A DNA stretch of 64,000 nt from Escherichia coli (GTDB lineage Bacteria; Pseudomonadota; Gammaproteobacteria; Enterobacterales; Enterobacteriaceae): assembly GCF_003019035.1 (NCBI RefSeq), contig NZ_CP027447.1; one strand, 5' to 3'. Below the pieces are notes generated by a model that saw only the letters and a program-made list of their open reading frames with translations, had not been told where the DNA came from and searched no databases. The translations under genes and the position numbers were made by a program. Numbering within the stretch: position 1 is the first letter of the stretch; the number at the start of each line of letters is the position of its first letter. Below, piece by piece: positions 1,384-50,994 of the stretch.

Positions 1384-2706
1384 TTACTTAATACCGTATT
1401 CTCGGCTTAACCGACGGTGCAACCTTAACACATTGGTTTCAACTGCCGTCACCACGTTCTCCGGAAAATCTGTCGGTAATGAAGTCTTCACATGATCCAG
1501 TGCTGCCGGAATCATTCTGGCAAAGTCACTCAGGATTTCATGCATCTGCACTTGCGGAAATTTCAGCACCTTTGCTGTCGCCAGAAAATGTCGCGGATAA
1601 ATTTTATCGATTGCCGTTTTTTTGCCTTTGGATGCGTTAAGCCCCATTGCCAGTTTGAGATCGCTGATGTGTATTCCTGCGCCACCCAATACCGGAAATG
1701 CTGAAATGATGTCGTAAAATGGCGTGAGTCGATAACTGCCGCCAGCCTGAATAAATACGGAGAAGTTTTTTGCATGGCCATCCGTTGCGCCAATCAACCA
1801 CTGGAAGACCTGGAATTTCATAAAATCATAACGATCTTTCAGCGCCTCGCTGGACCCCATCAAAAAAGCCATGATCCGCGCGATGCCTGGGCCTCCATCT
1901 GATTCATATTTCACCGATGAAGGTAAACCAAATGTCTGACACATATCCTCCTGTGGCAAGCGAAGTAAAACCGTTCGCTCAGTATTCCAACGCCTGTCAA
2001 AACGTTCGACCGCTAACGCGCGCACATTTCCCGCTTTAATGATTTCTGCGTCCGGCACATTCAACCCAAGTTCTTTCGCCAGCAGCAGACAGTAATACTC
2101 ATTATCAACGCTTTGGCTGAGATCGAGCGTCGCATTGGGCTGCCTGATTTCGCCAATCGGTAATTTAATGATGTGCGTCGTCGGCGTTATTCCTTTCGGA
2201 ATGCACCAGTCATTGCCTATTCTGAGCAGTGCTGTCTTCTCCTGTGCGCCAGCAACCGAGATGCGAAAGTCATTTTCTTCTCTAATCATGCCTAGCGGGA
2301 TATCTGCTTTATAAGCCGTTAATACTTCTTCAAGTCTGGCTTCAGTAAGCTTTTCCCATGCCATTATCGGACGCGTTACGGTTTCGTCTTCGGGTATTAA
2401 CGTCACAGCACCAACGCTGTCTCGCCCTATTTCTGACAATAAATCAAACGGTTGTCTGGATTTAGCATGATAACGTTTAACGATCCGGTCACGTACAATC
2501 GGGCTATCGGGTAGCAGGTTATCGAAGAAGTTAAATACAGCATCAGAGGTGATATTCCCCCTCTGCAATGGCAGCGAAAGTGATAACGGTCTGGCATAAC
2601 GGTTGGCTAACCACTCCGGTGCATACTTAAAGGTGTGCGCGCCGTTGGCTAACTTCGTTAACTCGCCTACCCGCTGGTTGTTCATCCAGGTGACAAGTTT
2701 AGGCAT
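1384..2706 (-). CDS. hipA: HipA serine/threonine kinase toxin (440 aa from MPKLVTWMNNQRVGE)
   Basis: Full-length match to HipA; the 459-aa track ORF is an upstream extension overlapping hipB; true ATG overlaps the hipB stop by 1 nt. Confidence 0.95.
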   Translation of the reverse strand: MPKLVTWMNNQRVGELTKLANGAHTFKYAPEWLANRYARPLSLSLPLQRGNITSDAVFNFFDNLLPDSPIVRDRIVKRYHAKSRQPFDLLSEIGRDSVGAVTLIPEDETVTRPIMAWEKLTEARLEEVLTAYKADIPLGMIREENDFRISVAGAQEKTALLRIGNDWCIPKGITPTTHIIKLPIGEIRQPNATLDLSQSVDNEYYCLLLAKELGLNVPDAEIIKAGNVRALAVERFDRRWNTERTVLLRLPQEDMCQTFGLPSSVKYESDGGPGIARIMAFLMGSSEALKDRYDFMKFQVFQWLIGATDGHAKNFSVFIQAGGSYRLTPFYDIISAFPVLGGAGIHISDLKLAMGLNASKGKKTAIDKIYPRHFLATAKVLKFPQVQMHEILSDFARMIPAALDHVKTSLPTDFPENVVTAVETNVLRLHRRLSREYGIK

Positions 2707-2972
2707 TACCACTCCAGATCTTGCTGTTCTGTTGATTCTGGCGAGGCATTTTTCGTGTCGCATAGCGTCATTGAGAGTTCAAGCGACTGTAAAATCTTAA
2801 AAAATGTCGTGAGCGTGGTATTGTCAGGGTTGTTTTCGAAATTGGAAATTGTCGCCTGCTTAATACCGATTTTTTTCGCCAGCTCGCTCTGCGTCCAGCC
2901 ATTTTGCTGACGAACCAGTTTCATTGCATTCGCTAATTGCGTTGGGTTATAGATCTTCTGAAAGCTCATCAT
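2706..2972 (-). CDS. hipB: HipB antitoxin, Xre-type HTH repressor (88 aa from MMSFQK)
   Basis: Sequence recognised as HipB; position immediately upstream of and overlapping hipA. Confidence 0.9.
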   Translation of the reverse strand: MMSFQKIYNPTQLANAMKLVRQQNGWTQSELAKKIGIKQATISNFENNPDNTTLTTFFKILQSLELSMTLCDTKNASPESTEQQDLEW

Positions 2973-2993
2973 GTCATACGTCCACAGCATATT

Positions 2994-3107
2994 TATCCGC
3001 TCAAGGGGATATTATCAGTTTTATCCTTTAGTGGGGATAAAGTCAATCAGGAAACACATCTTATCCGCTCTACGGGATAAACACTGTGATATCCGCGATC
3101 GCGGATA
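2994..3107. promoter_or_regulatory. hipBA promoter-operator region with four TATCC-N8-GGATA HipB operators
   Basis: Palindromes read directly at 2994-3011, 3022-3039, 3062-3079 and 3090-3107. Confidence 0.85.
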
Positions 3108-3146
3108 AAAAGGAGGATTTAAAAGTCGTTTGAAGTCGGCAATATT

Positions 3147-3175
3147 AAGCCGCATGCATCTTCGACATGCGGCTT
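3147..3175 (-). terminator. Candidate terminator hairpin downstream of the autotransporter gene
   Basis: 10-bp perfect stem AAGCCGCATG / CATGCGGCTT; trailing U-tract on the minus strand is weak. Confidence 0.35.
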
Positions 3176-3182
3176 ATACGGT

Positions 3183-6100
3183 TTACCAGCTATATTTCAC
3201 ACCCAGCATGCCCTGAGTATCGCTATAGCCTTTATCACCTAGTTGCACACCGACATTCCCCCACAGGCTAAGGTTGTTATTTACTTTCGCCTCAACCCCG
3301 GTACGTACTTCACCGAGATTACGCGCACCATCACGGCTTACGTTTTGACCATTCATCTTCACGGCGTAGACTTTGCTGTTGTTGATCCAGTTCGCTTCAA
3401 TGTAAGGCTGGAACTCACGCTGTTTACCATTGTCACGCTGGTGATGACTGTTCTGGTAGGTTTTCACCCCAAGTCGTGTTTGCACGTTTCCGTCTCCTTC
3501 CGTTTCAATGCGTGTTCCGTCTTTCCGGGTATGGTCAGAATCTTTCACACCCATCCAGGTGATTTGTACCTGTGGCTGGACGTACCAGGTATTCAGCGTC
3601 CCTTCGCTGCCGCTAAATGTTCCCGCTTCAAAGGTATACCCACCCTCAACAGAGGCCGTCACACCGCGAGAATCATAGTCGTCAGCAGAACGGTTATCGG
3701 AACTGACGCTGTTATCAAACCAGTTATACAGCGCCCAGCTGTCAACATAAGCGCCGGTCTTATTCGCATCGTTCTGATACCAGGTCGCGTACAGTCCTGC
3801 GCTGTAACCGCTGATGCGCCCATCCGATTTATAACCCACATGATTACTCTGAGTATTACTGTGCTGATTGGCATAGCCTGCCATCACGCCGAGATGCCAG
3901 CGATCCTGCGCGTTGCTACTCCACTGCGCCAAATCGCCGCCTAGCTGCAATACATAGCGGTTAGCCTGAGTATTTAGCTGACCATCACCGGTCCTGAAAC
4001 GTTCGTGCCCTCCGACATGACGCATCCATATACTGGTTGCCGAATCCTGAACTCGCAGTGAATCTGTATACTGCGGCTCACCCAGACGGTCGTGTAAGCG
4101 ATGGCTAAACAGCGAGTTGGCTGCGGCAATGTTGCTGATATAGCTTCCGGCCTCCGGGCGATAAACTGATGGGCCTTCCGGATCCACAACAGGGGGATTA
4201 TTGATGGGATCGGGTGTATCCGCTGGCGTTACGCCGTCCCATTTACTGGTCAGATACCAGTTTTTCTCGTCATTCCCCTTCCCTTTAGCCAGCGTGTAGA
4301 CGTAAGCCCCAGCTTCGACAGTTCCGGTGGTCAGCGCGAAGTTACCTGCAGAATTACCGCCAACCTCAATGAGTTCAATACCGTTGACCGTTTGTGCACC
4401 GACGCCGCCAATGTTATTAACCCGAACGCGGGTATTGCCCTGCGTATCACCTTTTACGTTCATTTTATCCGTGGGGGAATTATCGCTACCCAGCGTCGCG
4501 TTGAACGTCATCAGGCCATTGTTTCCGGTATAGTTACCGTTAACGGTCAGTACATTCCCCGGTTTCCCCCCTTCGCTGTTCATTTGAACCGTGCCACCAT
4601 TCTCCAGGTTACCGCCGACAGTGGTTTTAGCGACACGCAGTGTCCCCCCAGGCATAACGTTCACATCACCTGCAGTGGTGACATTTCCCGACATCACACC
4701 GCTGTTATGGATATTAATGTGCTGACTTGCCATATTAATGGCAGAGTCGGAACCGAAAGCAATTTCACCACCCACGATATCCGTCGTACCCTGGTACGCC
4801 GCGGAATCGTTGTTAAGAGTCAGGATCCCGGACCCCAGTTTTGTCACACCGCCGCTACCGGTGATACTGTGCGTCATCGCCCAGCTACGCTCAGTGGAGA
4901 TGGTGAGCAGGCCATTATTGATAACGGAAGCATCACCCAGGTTTTTCTGCTCGTTGACGCTGAGCGCGCTGCCTGTATCAATGTTGAATTGCCCCACAAA
5001 GCGGCTATTATCGCCATCCAGCTCTACGTCTGTCCTGGCGGTTGCGCTCACGATACCCTTCCCGCTTATGCTATTACGCAGTTCGCCGGTCACGTTTTTT
5101 AGCGTTAACAGACCGTCATTGGCAATATTTCCTCTGCCTAACCCCTGCGTATTATCGAGGCTGACTTCCGCATTTGGGCTAACGCTGGTTAACGCATTGT
5201 AGCGTGCATTAAGCCCCTCGATAGCCAGCGTTCCCCCTGTAACATTCAGGTTTCCGCCACCTGTCAGTTCACCCTGACTGATCCCACCTTTATTCACCGT
5301 CAGCGACCCTTCTTTGAACAAAACAGTCGAACCCATCTGCCCGGTGAATGTCTCTACCGTCTGCGTCGATCCATTAAGATCGACGATGGCCGCGTTGCTG
5401 ATGTTCAGTTCCCGGGTGTTGCCCAGCGCGCCATCCGCATCGGTACGTAATGTCCCCATCTGAACGTAGGTTGCCCCCTGATAGTCGTTCTGACCGTTGG
5501 AAAGCGAAACCTGTCGCACCGTATTGATTGCCAGATCCCCTTCACCACCGATTTTTGCCGACATATCGGCCGTTGCGCCATAGGCTCCGCCATGTTCGGC
5601 TAATGTCAGCTTTTGCCCACCATGGATGTTCAGCGCTTTCAGCCCATAGTTAACGTACAAACCATCACCTGGTGCGGTCGTGAGGCGGAATCCATAATCA
5701 CCCTCGGCGACCACCGTTCCGTTTTGCGCAATGTGTAACGTTTTGTCCGCTTCCACCTCGTCGCCCTGTAAATCACGTAACGTTAATGAGCCACCCGACC
5801 CAATAACCGTTTGCGCCTTCACCAGTTGAACGCCGACATGGTTATCATCGTGTTCCAGCAAATTGAGCGTCGTCAGAGGGTTATTCGCCATGGGATCATT
5901 CCACGGTTTAGGCACGTCGATAAGCACGTCGCCCGTCCCGTTTACCTGATAGTTACGGCCTTTCCAGGTGTAGTCACCCGCGCCGACAGCCAGCGTATCG
6001 ACGCTGATATATCCCTCCGCAAGCGTCGCAGCAGGTATATCCGTATCGAAAGTGAGCGTACCGCCATTCATGGCTAGTCCACCAATGGATTGCTCTCCCA

Positions 6101-8603
6101 CGTTTACCGATGTGGTATTTTCACTGTCAGACTGAAGCATCGCGTGAGTAAGCGCAGCGGTGTTGTCGCGTTCCAGTGTGAAGGTACTGTCTTTCAGTTG
6201 GACAACACCGGCGAATTCAGTTCCTGTTGCATGGGTAAAGCCAAACATTTTGTCGGAGGATGACAGCTGCACTCGCATCAAGCCATCGCCTTTGAGCGCA
6301 TTGGTCAGCGTGTAATCTCCTGCGCTGTTCGTTGATGCGAGAATGTCGAGCGTACCGGGGCTTGCAATGGTGACTTCACTCGAACCCATGCCCGTTACCC
6401 CATCTGCCGTATGTGACGCAATGGTCAGGAGGCCGTCATTGACCAGCGTTTTACCGCTATAAGTATTCCCTGCATTGAACACCGTATGGCCTGCATCATG
6501 TATCACTTTTCCGTCTTTATCGTCACCCGTAATCAGCATATCGACCTGGTAGCCGGCATCACTGTTATTGGTATGATTAAAGACAAAAACACCTTCGCCA
6601 GAACCAAACTCTACTTTCGTCGCGTTGGCGATAAACCCGGCATCTGCCGCCGCCTCACCGTGAGCAGCACCAATGTTTAGCGTTCCTACAGCAGGTTCAA
6701 AAAGACCTAAGTAAACTTCGCCACCTTCGACATTCAGCGTGCCGTTATTCGTCAGGGTTAACGTACCCGTACCAGACGTCCCTACATTCATATTGAATGT
6801 TTCAAGAAGAGAGTTCTGCCCATCCACCCGCACGTCGCCCTTACTTTTGTCATTCAGAGCTATCTGTGTATCACGCGCTTTAACTATACCTCCGGTGGTA
6901 ATATTCAGTTCACCCGTACCTAATACACCGACCTGTAGCAATTGGGCGTTAGTAGATGACGTTTTTAAATTCCAGAGACTATCCGTTGAAATATTAACTA
7001 TCCCCTTACCGGAGGCATTTCCTCCGATAAATCCATAGCCCGTTGAATTAAGGGTGGCACCATTACTGACATTTACGATGCCGCTACCAAAATTACCGAC
7101 ATTGATACCTACAGTATCGAACGATGATGTCGCATCCATCAGGTTCAGTGTGCCGATACCGCTTGCTTTATCGCCCAAAAAAGTAATATTTTGCGATACG
7201 AACTTACCGCCATCGCTGATATTGAGGTTTCCGACGCCCGCAACACCAATGGTGGTGTAGACATTCTTATTGACCTCCCATATCCCCCCCGTGGTGATGC
7301 TAACCTTCCCGACGCCGGTTTCTCCATAACCGAGTGAACTTCCTCCGTTGCTGACAACAAGCCCCTCATTACTGATATTCATTTCGCCGTGGCCGTCATA
7401 ACCAAGATTAGTTCCGAGATTAGTGATAACGGAGTTCTTATCCTTAACAGTAATGTTGCCTGTGCCTGTTTCTTTCATCCCCGCAGTGATAATTCCCGAA
7501 TCTACTTTGCCTTCACTAGAGACATTAAGTTCACCGTCGCCAGCATCACCGATATAGATATAGCGGAAAGCTTCGCCCGTTCCGAGGAAATTCCAATGCC
7601 CTTTATCGGTCACGTTGACGACACCGTGGGAACCGTCCTGAACGCCCACCAATGAATATTCTTTGTTATTAATCAGTCCATTATTGGAAATATTGACTTT
7701 GCCATTACCGAAATATCCATTATAGAGTCTGCGTACCGTGATGACAGAGTCTTGATCCTGCACATTCAGGGTTCCGATACCGGTGGCATTGCCTCCGATA
7801 ATCGTATTTTCAGCCGTAATTAGCCCACCCTCGCGAATAGTCGCTTCCCCAGTTCCTTGATTACCAATTTGAAATTCAATTGAGGAATCGTTATTTTTTA
7901 TTAGCCACTCACCGCCCTTTTCAACGACAACCTTACCATTACTGTTCGCTTGATATCCTACAGTGGCGACTATTGAACTCGTGACGTAACCCTTATCCGT
8001 AATATTTAATGAGCCCGTACCGTAACTCCCTATTTCGAATAATTCGGTCGTCAGAACCGAGTCCTCTCCCTCAACATTAACCGTCCCGACGCCTCCTGTC
8101 GAAGAACCTATCCTTAAATATCCTCCGTCAACGTGACCCTTCTGTTTAATATTCAGCGTCCCCGTTCCGGATTGACCCACATTTAAAGGCCTTGCATTAT
8201 TTCCGCTATCATACAATCGCCAGGTCCCACCCAAAACATTAACGGTGCCCTCCGAGTCCTCATTAGCGCCAATGACGCTGGTAGTAATAGTGGTTAAGGA
8301 AGCATTACCGCCAGCCAAAATATTAAGCACTCCAGTGCCATACCAGCCAACCAGGTAGGCATCATAAGCAACATCAGTATCAATATTGGTAATCTGACCA
8401 TTATCAACTTCCAGACTCGCACCAGACGCTGAACCGCTTAGTGCCAGCAAAACACCCAGCGTCAATCTACTGAGTTTCGTTGTCAGTCCAGAGGATTTAC
8501 GCAAATTAACCGTCGATGTTTTACCTACCCTGCGAGTTAATTCAGAGCAGGCCTGAAATACCTGTAGAGTGCAATTCCATATCACGCGATAGATTCTATT
8601 CAT
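3183..8603 (-). CDS. AIDA-I-type autotransporter adhesin, 1806 aa, intact (YdeK/YneO-family locus)
   Basis: N-terminal extended signal peptide (MNRIYRVIWN...), long Gly/Thr/Asn-rich beta-helix passenger repeats, C-terminal beta-barrel ending ...LGVKYSW. Confidence 0.85.
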   Translation of the reverse strand: MNRIYRVIWNCTLQVFQACSELTRRVGKTSTVNLRKSSGLTTKLSRLTLGVLLALSGSASGASLEVDNGQITNIDTDVAYDAYLVGWYGTGVLNILAGGNASLTTITTSVIGANEDSEGTVNVLGGTWRLYDSGNNARPLNVGQSGTGTLNIKQKGHVDGGYLRIGSSTGGVGTVNVEGEDSVLTTELFEIGSYGTGSLNITDKGYVTSSIVATVGYQANSNGKVVVEKGGEWLIKNNDSSIEFQIGNQGTGEATIREGGLITAENTIIGGNATGIGTLNVQDQDSVITVRRLYNGYFGNGKVNISNNGLINNKEYSLVGVQDGSHGVVNVTDKGHWNFLGTGEAFRYIYIGDAGDGELNVSSEGKVDSGIITAGMKETGTGNITVKDKNSVITNLGTNLGYDGHGEMNISNEGLVVSNGGSSLGYGETGVGKVSITTGGIWEVNKNVYTTIGVAGVGNLNISDGGKFVSQNITFLGDKASGIGTLNLMDATSSFDTVGINVGNFGSGIVNVSNGATLNSTGYGFIGGNASGKGIVNISTDSLWNLKTSSTNAQLLQVGVLGTGELNITTGGIVKARDTQIALNDKSKGDVRVDGQNSLLETFNMNVGTSGTGTLTLTNNGTLNVEGGEVYLGLFEPAVGTLNIGAAHGEAAADAGFIANATKVEFGSGEGVFVFNHTNNSDAGYQVDMLITGDDKDGKVIHDAGHTVFNAGNTYSGKTLVNDGLLTIASHTADGVTGMGSSEVTIASPGTLDILASTNSAGDYTLTNALKGDGLMRVQLSSSDKMFGFTHATGTEFAGVVQLKDSTFTLERDNTAALTHAMLQSDSENTTSVNVGEQSIGGLAMNGGTLTFDTDIPAATLAEGYISVDTLAVGAGDYTWKGRNYQVNGTGDVLIDVPKPWNDPMANNPLTTLNLLEHDDNHVGVQLVKAQTVIGSGGSLTLRDLQGDEVEADKTLHIAQNGTVVAEGDYGFRLTTAPGDGLYVNYGLKALNIHGGQKLTLAEHGGAYGATADMSAKIGGEGDLAINTVRQVSLSNGQNDYQGATYVQMGTLRTDADGALGNTRELNISNAAIVDLNGSTQTVETFTGQMGSTVLFKEGSLTVNKGGISQGELTGGGNLNVTGGTLAIEGLNARYNALTSVSPNAEVSLDNTQGLGRGNIANDGLLTLKNVTGELRNSISGKGIVSATARTDVELDGDNSRFVGQFNIDTGSALSVNEQKNLGDASVINNGLLTISTERSWAMTHSITGSGGVTKLGSGILTLNNDSAAYQGTTDIVGGEIAFGSDSAINMASQHINIHNSGVMSGNVTTAGDVNVMPGGTLRVAKTTVGGNLENGGTVQMNSEGGKPGNVLTVNGNYTGNNGLMTFNATLGSDNSPTDKMNVKGDTQGNTRVRVNNIGGVGAQTVNGIELIEVGGNSAGNFALTTGTVEAGAYVYTLAKGKGNDEKNWYLTSKWDGVTPADTPDPINNPPVVDPEGPSVYRPEAGSYISNIAAANSLFSHRLHDRLGEPQYTDSLRVQDSATSIWMRHVGGHERFRTGDGQLNTQANRYVLQLGGDLAQWSSNAQDRWHLGVMAGYANQHSNTQSNHVGYKSDGRISGYSAGLYATWYQNDANKTGAYVDSWALYNWFDNSVSSDNRSADDYDSRGVTASVEGGYTFEAGTFSGSEGTLNTWYVQPQVQITWMGVKDSDHTRKDGTRIETEGDGNVQTRLGVKTYQNSHHQRDNGKQREFQPYIEANWINNSKVYAVKMNGQNVSRDGARNLGEVRTGVEAKVNNNLSLWGNVGVQLGDKGYSDTQGMLGVKYSW

Positions 8604-9087
8604 ATAAACGCTCCATATACAAACAATACAGCCACGAAAGAGATGAGTCGCCAGACATTAAAAATGAAACTTATTAAATTGTCAGAGGTCTGTATTGAGT
8701 GTTAGTTGGAGATGGGAAGGTGTCAATTTGGCTAATTTGCTAATGCTTTCGAATTGATAGATTAAAAATTGCATAGTTCTTATTTTATTTAAAAATGAAC
8801 TATGAGTTATTGTTGCTTAATAAGAAAAATGTTTCTTTCAATAAGAAAATTACCATCATCATATTTAACAAAGAATAGCACCAATTGCTAAAAAAGAACT
8901 CTATTAAAACTCTTTTTCATTCATTTATGCTTTTAGGAATATTCGCTATAAAATAAGGGTTATGCTTAATGCTTTAAGAAAAATAGCAATTTCCCCTTGA
9001 ATATAGTACTGGCGATGGAACGATGAATCTGCAAGCTGGCATTTAACAAGCCAGTTCTAAAAGAAGGGAAATAAGAATAACTATACT

Positions 9088-9123
9088 CAAAAACTAACAG
9101 CCACGGTCATCATGATGTGGCTG
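9088..9123 (-). terminator. Rho-independent terminator of lsrK
   Basis: Stem CAGCCAC/GTGGCTG at 9098-9123 followed on the minus strand by UUAGUUUUUGAG. Confidence 0.5.
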
Positions 9124-9132
9124 TCAATGAAA

Positions 9133-10725
9133 CTATAACCCAGGCGCTTTCCATAACGACGTCGTCAGTCCATGATCAACCAGCCCCAGCTGATCCTGAT
9201 AAACTGCCTGCCACTTATCGCGTGAATCCTGATAAAGTTCATGCTTTTCTGGGTCTGGTGTGTGCGTCCGTTCCCAGCGAACCAGGCGTTCTCCGGTTTC
9301 TGCCATTGATGAAAAAATTCCGGCACCGACGCCAGCTGCAATGGCACATCCTAATGCAGTGGCTTCTTTGACCACCGGAATATTGACGGGTAATCCCGAG
9401 ACATCAGCGAGAATTTGACTCCATAATTTCCCTTTTGAACCTCCGCCTGCAAAGACCAGAGCGGTGGGATGAATATTCGAAAAATCAGCAATTTGCTGCA
9501 AGTTACACGCTGATACAATCGCCGCATTTTCTTCCAGCGCACGGAACAATGTCGCTTTGTTACATTTATCCGGGTCAATGGACAAGTTAATAAAGGAAGG
9601 CGCAGCGTGATACCAGGTTTTAAAGCGCATTCTGTCGGAGAATATCGGCATTACGCCCCACGACCCAGGCGGCACCCGACTGGCCATCTCTTCAAGCAGC
9701 GTATAGGTGTCGATGCCTAAACGTTCGGCAATCAGTTTTTCTTCGGCACAGAAAGCATCGCGGAACCAGCGCATGGTGAGTCCGGTAAAAAAGCTTATAG
9801 ATTCAGCTTGTACCATGCCAGGAATAACATGGGGATTAACGCGCACGTTCATTTCTGGGTCTGTCACCGGCGCGGCTAAGTTTACAACTTGCTGCCAGAA
9901 TGTACCGCCAAGAACCGCGGTTTGTGCCGGACGGACAACGCCTAACCCCAGGCAACCAAGCTGCACGTCACCTCCTCCAACGACCACCGGAGTGCCCGCC
10001 TTCAGACCGCAGAGTTCCGCCGCTTGTGAACTTACCACGCCCAGCAATGTGCCGGTTTCTTTGACAGGAGAAAGAATATCGGCCCGCAGTCCGGCCATAT
10101 CCAGCAATGCAGGTTTCCAGTCACGGGTGGTTAGATCAAGAAGTCCCGTGGTGCCAGCGTTAGAGGGATCCACCGCCAGTTCGCCGCTGAGCATATAGGC
10201 CAGCCAGTCGCTGATCATGGTGATGGTCGACGCCTGTCGGTAGATATCGGAACGATGGTGCGCCAGCCAAAGTAATCTGGGGATGGCGCTTAAAGCCAGC
10301 GTTTGCCCGGTCGCTCGATAAACTTTGTTTTCAAAGGTATTGTTGTGCAGTTCTTTAAGTTCGCTAACTTCGCGCGCCGCTCTGGCATCCACATTGGCGC
10401 AGGCCCAGATCGGTGTTCCATCATTGTTATATAAAACAATGCCTTCACGCATCGAACATGCCGAAACGGCAGCGATATACTCCGGGGCTATGCCGGCGTT
10501 GTGCAGCGCCTGGCGCATACACTCACACGCCAGTTGCCAGTTTTTGTTGAGATCAAATTCCATAGAACCAGGAACGTCCGGTACTGCCAGGTGCCGCCAC
10601 TCCGCCTGTCCCACGGCTATTTGATTGCCTTCCAGGTCGAATATCACAGCCCGAATACTTCCGGTACCTGCATCCAGCGCCATCAGGTAATACTTTGATT
10701 CTGAAGGGGTAAAGAGTCGAGCCAT
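9133..10725 (-). CDS. lsrK: Autoinducer-2 kinase LsrK (530 aa)
   Basis: FGGY sugar-kinase family sequence recognised as LsrK; divergent from lsrA operon together with lsrR. Confidence 0.95.
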
Positions 10726-49068: not shown

Positions 49069-49853
49069 AATTCACAGGTGTTTTTTCCCATCCTGTGGTT
49101 TCCTTGGCGTTTTCTAGGTTTTTTCAGATAGTTGCATTTTTTAAAAAGCATCCTAAGTTCGATCTCAGTGTCTATCTGGGGCCTATTTCTGTCCCATATA
49201 TGCCCCAAAAAAACTCCCCAACAGATAAGTAGTTTTTTCATGGATTTATGCGTAAAATCAAGAACGGCTGGAAATCATTCAATACTCACACTATCGAAAA
49301 ATTTACCAGCCAACCGCAGCACGTTCTTGCATAAGGCGTGTCTGCGGTTTTTCAACTATTCAGATACATCACTCCCATCACATTCATTCCTCCGCATCAA
49401 AGGCATATAGGCTATATCACCTTGATATTTTTCTTTTTCAGATAAAAACTGTTATCTATGTATACTTTTAAACCCAATCCGTGTAGAGTCTCTGCATAAG
49501 ATAGTTTGCAGTTGCCGCTTCAGCTTGCGCCATAAACCGCCTGATTTTTGCTGCCACCTGTTAGCATTCCTGTATACCTGAAACGACAATGTTTATCTAC
49601 GAACTTTAAGAACACCCAAGATAAAAATTGTCAACTATATCATATATAACACATTACTAATTCGAGGCTATATGAACAGCATACTGATAATCACTTCTCT
49701 CCTTATCATATTCAGCATTTTTAGTCATGCCCTAATAAAATTAGGGATTGGCATATCCAATAACCCAGACAAAACCGATGTATAAGTCAACATATCCTGA
49801 ATCAGACATACAATATCGCAATGAAAATCAATAATATTTTAAGGAATATCTTC

Positions 49854-50087
49854 ATGAAATCAAAAGACACCCTAAAGTGGTTCCCTGCGCAGCTTCCTGA
49901 AGTAAGAATTATCCTAGGGGATGCTGTAGTGGAAGTAGCAAAACAGGGAAGACCTATCAATACCAGAACATTGCTTGATTACATTGAAGGAAACATAAAG
50001 AAAAAATCATGGCTGGATAACAAAGAATTATTACAAACAGCGATATCAGTTCTTAAAGACAACCAAAATTTAAATGGTAAAATGTAA
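49854..50087 (+). CDS. ydfK: Prophage small protein YdfK (77 aa from MKSKDTLKWF)
   Basis: Start chosen at the ATG with AAGGA Shine-Dalgarno (49854) rather than the track ATG at 49821; recognised as YdfK/YnaE family. Confidence 0.75.
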   Translation: MKSKDTLKWFPAQLPEVRIILGDAVVEVAKQGRPINTRTLLDYIEGNIKKKSWLDNKELLQTAISVLKDNQNLNGKM

Positions 50088-50403
50088 TATAATAAACTTA
50101 CTTTTTTATCATTTTTCCACTTTAACAACATTTTGCTCCACTTTTCCACGACCAAACAACTTGAAATCTGGTTAAAATAACACGCAACACTATTCTTCTT
50201 CCTTGAGTCCGCCCGGAACTCGAAAAACAAACCGAGTTAAAGCCATTTCTCACAAAACCGATTTTGGGTCTCACCAAAATTACGGGGTTGCATACGCATT
50301 CGTTTATTTTCGAACGTGTACATACAAATATGCACAAAAATAATCAAAATTATTTTCTGAGATGCATTATGATATGAACACCAATTTCGTATAGAGTCTC
50401 ACT

Positions 50404-50994
50404 ATGTCTCGAATTTTTGCTTACTGTCGGATATCAACGCTGGATCAGACCATCGAAAATCAACGCCGGGAAATCGAAAGTGCAGGTTTTAAAATCAAAC
50501 CTCAGCAAATAATCGAAGAACACATTAGCGGCTCAGCAGCAACCAGTGAGCGTCCTGGTTTTAACCGGTTGCTTGCTCGCCTGAAATGTGGTGATCAATT
50601 GATTGTGACAAAACTGGATCGCCTTGGTTGTAATGCAATGGATATCAGGAAAACAGTGGAACAACTGACCGAAACAGGTATCAGAGTGCATTGCTTAGCA
50701 TTGGGGGGCATTGACCTGACCAGTCCAACAGGAAAAATGATGATGCACGTAATTTCAGCAGTCGCTGAATTTGAACGAGACCTTTTACTTGAACGCACTC
50801 ATTCCGGGATAGTAAGAGCCCGCGGCGCAGGGAAACGTTTTGGTCGACCACCTGTGTTAAATGAAGAACAGAAACAGGTGGTATTCGAACGAATTAAGTC
50901 AGGTGTAAGTATAAGTGCCATTGCCCGGGAATTCAAAACCTCGCGGCAAACCATTTTAAGAGCCAAAGCAAAACTTCAGACACCTGATATATAA
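50404..50994 (+). CDS. pin: Serine recombinase, Pin/Gin/Hin-family DNA invertase (196 aa)
   Basis: N-terminal resolvase catalytic domain (…[10 protein letters not shown]…) and C-terminal HTH; convergent with the tail-fibre genes. Confidence 0.9.

Follow-up and report, generated by a model that had tools for sequence, protein, structure and literature searches.

The 64,000-nt stretch of Escherichia coli DNA analysed here (the window) carries, at positions 3183–8603 on the minus strand, what is very probably an intact allele of the chromosomal ECSE_1600-family autotransporter gene, i.e., the functional counterpart of yneO, a pseudogene in K-12, a reading that takes in its mechanism, its regulation and its status in populations. 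The gene is a known E. coli surface-protein gene in an intact copy, and its pattern of intact, disrupted and absent copies has been known since 2008. The allele in the window is a clean, slip-resistant one on which functional work on YneO/ECSE_1600 could be based, whereas K-12 is unusable for such a study.

Gene identity and genomic locus

The reading frame begins with an ATG and encodes 1806 amino acids plus a stop codon, with zero internal stops in the translation of the listed ORF. It represents a complete coding sequence of the ECSE_1600/YneO family of type Va autotransporters: the NCBIfam model NF011422 (“ECSE_1600 family autotransporter”) is matched with 4110.2 bits (cutoff 2335), protein residues 1–1806 aligning to profile positions 1–1806 of 1806, and the locus of strain SCU-301, which is 100% identical to the window, is annotated with an intact CDS of the same family name (WP_096986979.1) between hipB and lsrK. 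The initial annotation had described an uninterrupted 1806-aa frame from MNRIYRVIWN to a C-terminal barrel, and this description is accurate in its start codon, in its lack of internal stops and in the barrel, which is matched by Pfam; its view of the product as an intact classical autotransporter is likewise confirmed by Pfam, NCBIfam and structure-sequence matches.

The order hipBA – gene – lsrK, with the same neighbours, is annotated in SCU-301, K-12 and 14 other strains, and the chromosomal position is orthologous in SE11, HS and K-12. The window gene, ECSE_1600 of SE11 and yneO of K-12 are thus the same gene in the same position and of the same NF011422 family, the SE11 form also having 1806 aa. 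According to a 2008 report (PMC2608844), SE11 and HS have ECSE_1600 (1806 aa) in intact form, MG1655, E24377A and O157 Sakai have disrupted copies, and B2 strains lack the gene. Given that a curated NCBI model exists and that the distribution in E. coli was tabulated in 2008, the discovery value of the gene itself is small.

At the nucleotide level, the window allele is about 97% identical to other E. coli alleles and represents a minority haplotype, with 6 of 5,343 records being at least 99% identical to it. Diversifying selection on the gene was considered as a cause of this 3% divergence and rejected, because the flanking genes have diverged to an equal degree: hipA, lsrK, lsrR and lsrA also differ from K-12 by 2–4%. 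Three antisense ORFs lie within the gene on the plus strand (3243–3944, 4392–5102 and 4738–5202). Two of them have synonymous to nonsynonymous substitution ratios of 11:114 and 49:163, compared to 78:47 and 162:50 for the sense frame; the third is interrupted by stops in other alleles, and none of the three has a Pfam match. They were therefore rejected as real genes, as the initial annotation, which regarded them as artefacts, had anticipated.

Disruption of the gene in K-12

The K-12 orthologue, yneO, consists of ydeK (b1510) and ydeU (b1509), is annotated as “frameshifted” and is split in two ORFs, 1325 and 466 aa long. Alignment to the window gives 96.85% nucleotide identity and a single additional G in a poly-G run (tract 2, see below), so that the b1509–b1510 region is indeed the same gene in disrupted form, as the initial annotation had stated. 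The comparison shows that the K-12 lesion arose in two steps: an A>G substitution lengthened a run of six G to seven, and a +1 slip followed. Where the locus is mentioned in PMC7858067 and PMC4350175, the subject is IS or large insertions that arose during K-12 evolution experiments and not the G runs, and a Keio ydeU mutant is merely listed in a blue-light screen (PMC10782963).

Protein architecture and proposed secretion

The sequence features expected of a type Va autotransporter can be recognized, namely a Sec signal peptide of the ESPR type, a C-terminal barrel of the 12-stranded translocator type in the same polypeptide, and a beta-helical passenger with an autochaperone next to the barrel. 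The extended signal peptide region comprises aa 1–48 (8460–8603, minus strand as for all features of the gene; Pfam PF13018, E 2.6e-14) and is followed by the hydrophobic core and a probable signal-peptidase site at about aa 47–63. The N-terminal passenger (aa ~64–630; 6714–8414) is assigned as a three-stranded beta-helix on the basis of its repeat spacing, TIGR04393, AlphaFold2 and Foldseek. The repeat, G-x-G-x-L-N-I in units of ~25 aa, accounts for about 22 rungs with a motif spacing of 24–26 aa; the segment also has nine matches to the T5SS/PEP-CTERM repeat TIGR04393 and is modelled by AlphaFold2 as all-beta with pLDDT above 90 over aa 64–633. Searched with Foldseek, this model retrieves Ag43 (4kh3, E 1.7e-7) and TibA (4q1q, E 6e-5), each with a probability of 1.00.

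The AlphaFold2 run covered aa 54–1253 and drew on an alignment of 18 sequences, mostly 97–98% identical; the model is informative at its ends and uninformative for aa 635–1053. The latter correspond to the central passenger (aa ~631–1053; 5445–6713), which has pLDDT below 50 on a shallow alignment and in which, over its ~420 aa, searches of Pfam and NCBIfam detected neither a Pfam domain nor an enzymatic domain. The C-terminal passenger (aa ~1054–1331; 4611–5444) is beta-rich and AIDA-I-like: alignment to the AIDA-I model NF033176 begins at aa 1070, a PATR repeat lies at aa 1253–1281, TIGR02601 matches as well, and aa 1054–1253 are modelled as all-beta with pLDDT 62–83. The passenger is of the Gly/Asn/Thr-rich beta-solenoid type in composition throughout and has zero cysteines.

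An autochaperone domain follows at aa 1332–1438 (4290–4610; Pfam AC_1, E 6.2e-26; Pertactin, E 1.4e-10), whose sequence also matches that of the IcsA autochaperone in structures 3ml3 and 5ke1. A Pro-rich linker (TPADTPDPINNPPVVDPEGPS), recognized by its composition, and the segment that precedes and enters the barrel occupy aa 1439–1524 (4032–4289) within the match to the AIDA-I structure 4mee. The outer membrane beta-barrel translocator comprises aa 1525–1806 (3186–4031), as indicated by PF03797 (aa 1525–1784, E 1.2e-41), TIGR01414 (E 6e-121) and 4mee (aa 1345–1806, E 9.8e-87).

The following sequence of secretion steps rests on what is known of classical (type Va) autotransporters, combined with the domains found here. 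The ESPR-type signal peptide would direct the 1806-aa precursor through Sec, and the C-terminal domain (aa 1525–1806) would, assisted by BAM, form a beta-barrel in the outer membrane. The ~1,400-aa passenger (aa ~64–1460) would then be exported with its C-terminal end first, and the autochaperone (aa 1332–1438) would be the first part to fold, nucleating a long right-handed beta-helix. The ~570 residues at the N-terminal end of the helix, with their ~22 rungs of the 25-aa repeat, would be of the Ag43/TibA structural type, and the passenger is expected to be displayed at the cell surface.

Upstream spacer and transcription signals

The gene is separated from lsrK by an intergenic spacer of 529 bp (8604–9132), which is considered a regulatory region. 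Its GC content is 0.312 and falls to 0.266 in the core (8700–9000), whereas the gene has 0.502 and the whole window 0.49; just 0.09% of the 529-nt segments of the 64 kb are at least as AT-rich, in keeping with an AT-rich promoter region. The strong AT bias noted in the initial annotation is thus a real property of the spacer, and it is also seen (GC 0.33–0.36) in orthologues of 83–85% nucleotide identity that have a different upstream neighbour. The small ORFs within the spacer were rejected as genes; they are just 25–30 aa long and consist of low-complexity, AT-rich codons.

A putative σ70 promoter, CTGACA-17-TTTAAT, lies at 8657–8685 on the minus strand. It is identical to the promoter listed for yneO of K-12 (PMC3946193), is the sole exact match in the window (0.03 expected by chance), and its –10 hexamer ends 54 nt before the ATG. 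A Shine-Dalgarno motif, GGAG, can be read 8 nt upstream of the start codon (8611–8614, minus strand). Directly after the lsrK stop, a hairpin at 9093–9128 on the minus strand (–17.4 kcal/mol, z –3.5), followed by the U-run UUAGUUUUU, is likely to be the lsrK terminator, in which case the autotransporter gene would form a separate transcription unit. At the other end, a 12-bp GC-rich hairpin begins 7 nt past the stop codon (3146–3176, minus strand; –18.9 kcal/mol, z –3.2) and, despite a weak U-run, is likely to be where the autotransporter transcript ends or is terminated. Transcription would start from the gene’s own promoter in the 529-bp spacer of 31% GC. A generic promoter and terminator scan returned no more hits than shuffled sequence did and, owing to its own limits, missed the spacer promoter as well as both hairpins; an Rfam scan of positions 2500–9500 at E≤1 found no match and hence no known RNA element in spacer or gene.

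In genomic SELEX, the yneO-lsrK spacer of K-12 was flagged as bound by HNS and RpoD (PMC3946193), and an RpoS SELEX peak has been assigned to the same ydeK-lsrK spacer (PMC5493296). The H-NS binding data were obtained in vitro with K-12 DNA rather than with the window allele. Because the K-12 spacer binds RpoD and RpoS holoenzymes together with H-NS in vitro, silencing of the gene under laboratory conditions is probable. Matches to the high-affinity H-NS motif TCGATAAATT with up to two mismatches are not above chance (88 versus 74.5 expected).

Intact, broken and absent alleles

The initial annotation implied that an intact copy is a rarity, which overstates the case: among E. coli strains with the gene, about half possess an intact copy, and such copies had been published in 2008 (PMC2608844). 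An intact gene is present in 9 of 16 sampled complete genomes and on 19 of 35 metagenome contigs, and the 1806-aa proteins form two clusters with 5,726 and 18,868 member sequences (~24,600). About a quarter of complete genomes lack the gene, and of the strains that have it, about half carry a broken copy. Besides the indels in G runs described below, many alleles are inactivated by nonsense mutations, deletions, an 8-bp duplication or IS elements, and several frameshifted alleles bear additional lesions. The finding in the window is therefore real but ordinary, intact copies being common in wild strains, and the gene is dispensable and repeatedly being lost.

Loss on this scale raises the question of whether even the intact ORF of the window strain is already a functionless relic, permanently silent and with its disabling mutation still to come. 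Apart from the large share of E. coli in which the gene is lost or broken, such a reading could draw on the AT-rich spacer, which is bound by H-NS in K-12, and on the fact that no function has been reported for the protein in the searchable literature. However, intact alleles that are up to 184 SNPs apart retain the full 1806-aa frame, and codon differences between one intact allele and another are synonymous rather than nonsynonymous at about 2:1 (e.g., 104:51). Moreover, full-length 1806-aa orthologues persist in divergent Escherichia lineages at 83–85% nucleotide identity, and for 5.4 kb to stay open in this way, purifying selection would be needed. A relic is hence improbable, and the window gene is probably a functional allele, although an open frame by itself is no proof of expression.

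Short G runs and the question of phase variation

In our samples, four short G runs that together make up 0.5% of the gene account for about half of the independent inactivations and for almost all single-base indels. Tract 1 (gene nt 3831–3838; 4766–4773, minus strand) is G8 in most E. coli, whereas the window has the interrupted version GGGTGGTG; genome counts (4,154 genomes) give G8 in 2637, the window type in 715, G9 in 358 and G7 in 295. Tract 2 (gene nt 3955–3960; 4644–4649, minus strand) is G6 followed by A in the window and G8, i.e., frameshifted, in K-12; among 4,126 genomes, G7 occurs in 1396, G6A in 1214 and G8 in 407. The remaining two are a G7 run (gene nt 1314–1320; 7284–7290, minus strand), with a –1 frameshift in two metagenome alleles, and a G6 run (gene nt 4033–4038; 4566–4571, minus strand), with a –1 frameshift in one. 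In the orthologues of 83–85% identity, tract 1 reads AGTGGTG or GGGGGGTG and tract 2 reads G6A. Judged by these sequences, G8 at tract 1 and G7 or G8 at tract 2 are derived states, and at both main runs the window allele has an ancestral-like version that resists slippage.

Runs of this kind could in principle form a programmed, reversible ON/OFF switch based on slipped-strand mispairing, such that K-12-like strains would be OFF-phase variants and not pseudogenes. The concentration of indels in 0.5% of the gene would fit such a switch, as would the recurrence of G9 at tract 1 (three or more allele backgrounds) and of the –1 change at nt 1314 (two). In addition, K-12 and the G9 alleles lie just 3 SNPs from an intact allele and are free of a second lesion, and the presence of G9 at tract 1 (5 of 52) and G8 at tract 2 (4 of 52) in short-read metagenome contigs means that these two variants are not merely long-read errors. 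G7 at tract 1 was seen in 0 of 52 such contigs. Tract length thus varies across isolates at the population level in a way that shifts the frame, although tract 1 is interrupted in the window and tract 2 is just G6. If true, this would be simple-repeat phase variation of a large surface adhesin, which is unusual for E. coli, and the K-12 “pseudogene” would be a revertible OFF phase. Phase variation in E. coli normally proceeds via invertible elements or Dam methylation.

Several observations argue against a switch. Tracts of G6–G8 count as short for contingency loci and for a mismatch-repair-proficient species. The longer states of tracts 1 and 2 are derived and missing from the orthologues of 83–85% identity, so the tracts are not conserved features, and tract 1 is missing altogether from 17% of genomes, the window included. 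G runs of at least six are about as numerous in the window allele as its G-rich composition predicts (3 observed, 2.3 expected). The nonsense mutations, deletions, 8-bp duplication, IS elements and secondary lesions, furthermore, look like erosion. A programmed switch is consequently unlikely, and it is equally doubtful that the G8 at nt 3831, the G7 at nt 3955, the G7 at nt 1314 and the G6 at nt 4033 would serve as its elements, with window-like alleles “locked ON”. Rather, the repeated loss of this gene proceeds mainly through short G runs, providing a worked example of hotspot-driven pseudogenization of a surface protein that is probably silenced. “Frameshifted” calls at such runs in long-read assemblies need a read-level check.

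Function and relation to known autotransporters

A search of the accessible literature for functional studies (adhesion, biofilm, expression) of ydeK, ydeU, yneO or ECSE_1600 returned none. Based on fold and family, the beta-helix rod most plausibly has a role in adhesion, aggregation or biofilm formation. That the passenger has some other activity, as a protease, lipase or toxin, is highly improbable: the ~420 residues at aa 635–1053, with their low-confidence model and no domain assignment, leave room for it, but Pfam and NCBIfam gave no match to a SPATE protease, a lipase or any other enzymatic domain, the passenger is of beta-solenoid composition without cysteines throughout, and its closest relatives in sequence and structure are the adhesins AIDA-I, MisL, ShdA, YfaL/EhaC, Ag43 and TibA.

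Among these adhesins, AIDA-I, which mediates diffuse adherence of E. coli, has the same architecture, with a distal passenger followed by autochaperone, linker and barrel, and its translocator structure 4mee covers the C-terminal part of the window protein. However, the protein scores 343 bits against the AIDA-I model NF033176, whose cutoff is 1200, and aligns to it over aa 1070–1805 only, which places it outside that family. Its N-terminal passenger has rungs of 24–26 aa in contrast to the 19-aa repeat of AIDA/TibA/Ag43, and so does not belong to that repeat type. AIDA-I and TibA are, moreover, accompanied by an adjacent heptosyltransferase gene, whereas the window gene has hipB and lsrK as neighbours and no glycosyltransferase. 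The fibronectin-binding adhesins MisL and ShdA of Salmonella have a similar C-terminal translocation unit (MisL, 467 bits over aa 1480–1806; ShdA, 206 bits), but neither score comes near its equivalog cutoff (1297 and 2249, respectively), the passengers cannot be aligned, and their genes are located elsewhere in the genome. The self-associating autotransporters Ag43 and TibA (4kh3, 7koh, 4q1q; E 1.7e-7 to 2e-4) are the top structural matches of the modelled N-terminal passenger, as three-stranded right-handed beta-helices, yet sequence identity is 12–14% and the TM-scores are low (0.27–0.41 per target).

With respect to regulation, Ag43 is phase-variable via Dam/OxyR, and nothing comparable was seen at the window gene. 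The homopolymer-tract autotransporters of Bordetella, Neisseria and Haemophilus resemble the E. coli gene in having poly-G within the coding sequence, in tract lengths that differ by strain, and in the resulting switch of frame. Unlike at those loci, the tracts in E. coli are short, derived and not conserved, and lesions of other kinds occur just as often.

Identity of the gene and of its K-12 counterpart

The minus strand of the window carries an uninterrupted 1806-aa ORF (3183..8603; ORF list and translation of the window), whose ATG start is preceded, on direct reading of the sequence, by a GGAG motif 8 nt upstream. By megablast, the locus is 100% identical over 6.3 kb to that of SCU-301, whose annotation lists it as an intact "ECSE_1600 family autotransporter" flanked by hipBA and lsrK, and almost all of 5,426 complete E. 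coli genomes give a chromosomal match. The NCBIfam model NF011422 covers the protein from the first to the last residue (4110 bits; cutoff 2335). Pfam recovers the full classical autotransporter layout: an ESPR extended signal peptide (aa 1-48, E 2.6e-14), a passenger-associated repeat (PATR, aa 1253-1281, E 7.2e-05, which at 23.2 bits lies below the Pfam cutoff of 27), an AC_1 autochaperone/pertactin-like region (aa 1332-1452, E 6.2e-26 and 1.4e-10), and the Autotransporter beta-domain (aa 1525-1784, E 1.2e-41). The intact 1806-aa autotransporter described in the initial annotation is thus real; its coordinates and description are accurate, and its interpretation is essentially right. The gene is known, named and widespread in E. 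coli, and its intact status relative to K-12 was published in 2008.

The disruption of the K-12 b1509-b1510 locus, noted initially, is borne out by alignment: the orthologous locus of MG1655 is annotated as "frameshifted" and is split into a 1325-aa and a 466-aa ORF, i.e., ydeK (b1510) and ydeU (b1509) of the yneO pseudogene (names as given in PMC10782963). The sole indel between the window and K-12 across 5,421 nt is one additional G in K-12 at nt 3955 of the coding sequence ("gene nt"; K-12 CCTGGGGGGGGCAC vs. window CCTGGGGGGACAC), which shifts the frame.

The gene contains three antisense ORFs of 154-236 aa. Among seven intact alleles, codon changes in the two longest are nearly all nonsynonymous (synonymous:nonsynonymous 11:114 and 49:163), as opposed to 78:47 and 162:50 in the sense frame across the same stretches; the third is interrupted by one or two stops in other alleles, and no Pfam domain passes the threshold in any of them. 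They were therefore rejected as genes and are artefacts, as had been proposed.

Intact, broken and absent copies in E. coli

According to the SE11 genome paper of 2008, SE11 and HS carry an intact ECSE_1600 (1806 aa), MG1655, E24377A and O157 Sakai have a disrupted copy, and the B2 strains CFT073, UTI89 and 536 have none (PMC2608844). An intact copy is not unusual: when 16 alleles were sampled by even steps down the ranked megablast list of complete genomes, nine were annotated as intact (one of them with in-frame deletions) and seven were frameshifted, while further rows of the list showed IS1, IS3 or IS5 insertions or a missing gene. Of 35 metagenome contigs covering the 5' part, 19 encode the full 1806 aa, and a large protein collection contains two clusters of 1806-aa proteins (5,726 and 18,868 member sequences) as well as many variants shortened to 1,450-1,700 aa by in-frame deletions.

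Many E. coli alleles carry in-frame passenger deletions that leave products of ~1,450-1,780 aa with ESPR and barrel retained; that of STEC1587, annotated as intact with 1776 aa, has lost two segments of 78 nt and 12 nt (gene nt 1447 and 3011). The pattern resembles repeat-mediated variation in the length of the beta-helix. A few database entries (P0061, P0078, P0073) are chimeric ORFs, in which the autotransporter is fused to FGGY-kinase (PF00370) or HipA (PF07804/PF13657) domains; lsrK is the adjacent kinase gene, and these fusions presumably stem from deletions or read-through at the borders of the locus.

Intact alleles differ by up to 184 SNPs, with synonymous and nonsynonymous codon changes at about 2:1 (104:51 between the window and one sampled allele, L004), and divergent Escherichia lineages encode full-length 1806-aa orthologues at 83-85% nucleotide identity. 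Intact copies of the protein are thus under purifying selection. The window allele is ~3% diverged from most E. coli, which reflects its lineage rather than the gene, because hipA, lsrK, lsrR and lsrA are equally diverged.

Frameshifts at G runs: decay or phase variation

In the 16 sampled genomes, all single-base frameshifts are confined to two G runs. Most sampled alleles have G8 at tract 1 (gene nt 3831-3838, window 4766-4773), and five broken alleles have G7, G9 or G12 there. At tract 2 (gene nt 3955, window 4644-4649), G6A and G7 are in frame, and K-12 and one other sampled allele read G8. The O157:H7 lesion is an 8-bp tandem duplication 29 nt beyond tract 2. Variants were counted across all complete genomes by exact matching of short queries. 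At tract 1 (4,154 genomes), the in-frame forms are G8 (2,637) and the window type GGGTGGTG (715), the frameshifted forms G9 (358) and G7 (295), and 149 genomes have other forms. At tract 2 (4,126 genomes), G7 (1,396) and G6A (1,214) are in frame, the K-12-type G8 (407) is frameshifted, and about 1,100 genomes have flank-SNP haplotypes or other forms; the O157-type duplication, also a frameshift, is present in 290 genomes. An O104:H4 genome (row H73) shares the tract-2 G8 frameshift of K-12, by independent slippage or as a shared allele.

Because long-read assemblies carry homopolymer errors, metagenome contigs were retested with one gapped pattern. G9 at tract 1 was recovered in 5/52 contigs, on two different tract-2 backgrounds, and the K-12-type G8 at tract 2 in 4/52; the +1 events are therefore real. 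G7 at tract 1 was found in none of the 52 short-read contigs with this pattern. Many of the G7 calls may therefore stem from deletions made in assembly, and long-read homopolymer errors of this kind would account for a sizeable share of the "frameshifted" annotations at tract 1. The 295 complete genomes with G7 include the K-12-derived lab strain ER1709 and an O157:H7. In the metagenome contigs, -1 frameshifts also affect two further G runs, the one at nt 1314 in two cases with differing backgrounds and the one at nt 4033 in a single case; three nonsense mutations, large deletions and several other indels occur as well. Broken alleles are typically 1-24 SNPs away from an intact one, and K-12 and two sampled G9 alleles (L010, L059) are each 3 SNPs from one common intact allele, so the inactivations are recent and independent. 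About half of these events fall within 29 nt of the 5.4-kb gene, a hotspot pattern that adds a small new detail to the initial annotation.

Clustered slippage in G runs could in principle constitute a reversible ON/OFF switch, i.e., phase variation, but we consider this improbable. The orthologues of 83-85% identity have GTGAGTGGTG or GTGGGGGGTG at tract 1 and, in 3/3, G6A at tract 2, so that G8 at tract 1 and G7/G8 at tract 2 are recent derived states rather than conserved elements. G runs of at least six are about as frequent as expected from the G-rich coding strand (3 vs. 2.3), other lesion types are as frequent as G-run lesions, and several frameshifted alleles have since accumulated extra damage. 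The pattern is probably better described as hotspot-driven decay of a gene that is dispensable and probably silenced. The window allele retains ancestral-like forms at both tracts (GGT GGT and G6A), and its intactness is consistent with this.

Upstream region and flanking genes

The 529-bp spacer between the gene and the lsrK stop at 9133 (window 8604-9132) has a GC content of 0.312 (core 0.266), compared to 0.502 for the gene and 0.49 for the window, and only 0.09% of 529-bp windows across the 64 kb are equally AT-rich, which substantiates the AT-rich upstream region noted initially. Neither an Rfam match nor a credible small ORF was found in the spacer. Directly after the lsrK stop lies a hairpin (-17.4 kcal/mol, z -3.5) with a trailing U-run, so the autotransporter gene is most likely a separate transcription unit. 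In K-12, genomic SELEX assigned the constitutive RpoD promoter CTGACA-17-TTTAAT to yneO and flagged the yneO-lsrK spacer as holding an H-NS site (PMC3946193), and an RpoS-holoenzyme peak was later placed in the same region (PMC5493296). This promoter sequence occurs once in the window (8657-8685, minus strand; 0.03 expected by chance). The gene may thus reasonably be taken as a candidate for H-NS silencing, with the K-12 literature as indirect support; matches to the H-NS motif were no more frequent than chance. The only other stretches of the 64 kb with 529-nt windows at ≤36% GC, at ~270-960 and ~49320-50550, may be H-NS-type AT-rich islands as well.

In the divergent orthologues hipBA still adjoins the gene, with a small Pmp3-family gene in between, and the upstream neighbor differs: instead of lsrK, a Fer2/FAD_binding_5 oxidoreductase pair or an MlrA-like regulator is found (L069-L071). 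The hipBA-side junction is therefore ancestral and the lsr-side junction is not. Spacer GC is 0.33-0.36 in these orthologues despite the different upstream gene, so the AT-rich control region belongs to the autotransporter gene.

In the window, the hipBA toxin-antitoxin module (1384-2972, minus strand) lies directly downstream, with four perfect HipB operator palindromes (TATCC-N8-GGATA; 0.05 expected) at 2994-3107. Positions 1-1500 align poorly with K-12 (11-42% mismatches, hundreds of gap columns); the SCU-301 counterpart carries an HTH pseudogene and, from a chaperone-usher fimbrial operon, the genes of a fimA-like major subunit and a chaperone, and K-12 has only a truncated usher (ydeT).

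Passenger fold and relation to known adhesins

Across residues ~64-630, a ~25-aa G-x-G-x-L-N-I unit is repeated about 22 times, and TIGR04393 matches the protein nine times. An AlphaFold2 model of aa 54-1253, built from a shallow alignment, is all-beta with three short strands per repeat at aa 64-633 (pLDDT >90), all-beta at aa 1054-1253 (pLDDT 62-83), and below pLDDT 50 at aa 635-1053. Foldseek places the modelled passenger closest to the Ag43 passengers 4kh3 (E 1.7e-7), 7koh, 7ko9 and 7kob, with TibA (4q1q, E 6e-5) also among the top PDB matches. Among solved structures, the AIDA-I translocator 4mee is closest in sequence (aa 1345-1806, E 9.8e-87), followed by IcsA autochaperone structures; Pfam and NCBIfam searches detected no enzymatic domain. 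By its domains, repeats, model and structural matches, the protein has an AIDA-I-type adhesin fold and architecture. It scores below the cutoff of the AIDA-I model (343 vs. 1200 bits), its repeats are of 25 aa instead of 19 aa, and a glycosyltransferase partner is missing from the locus.
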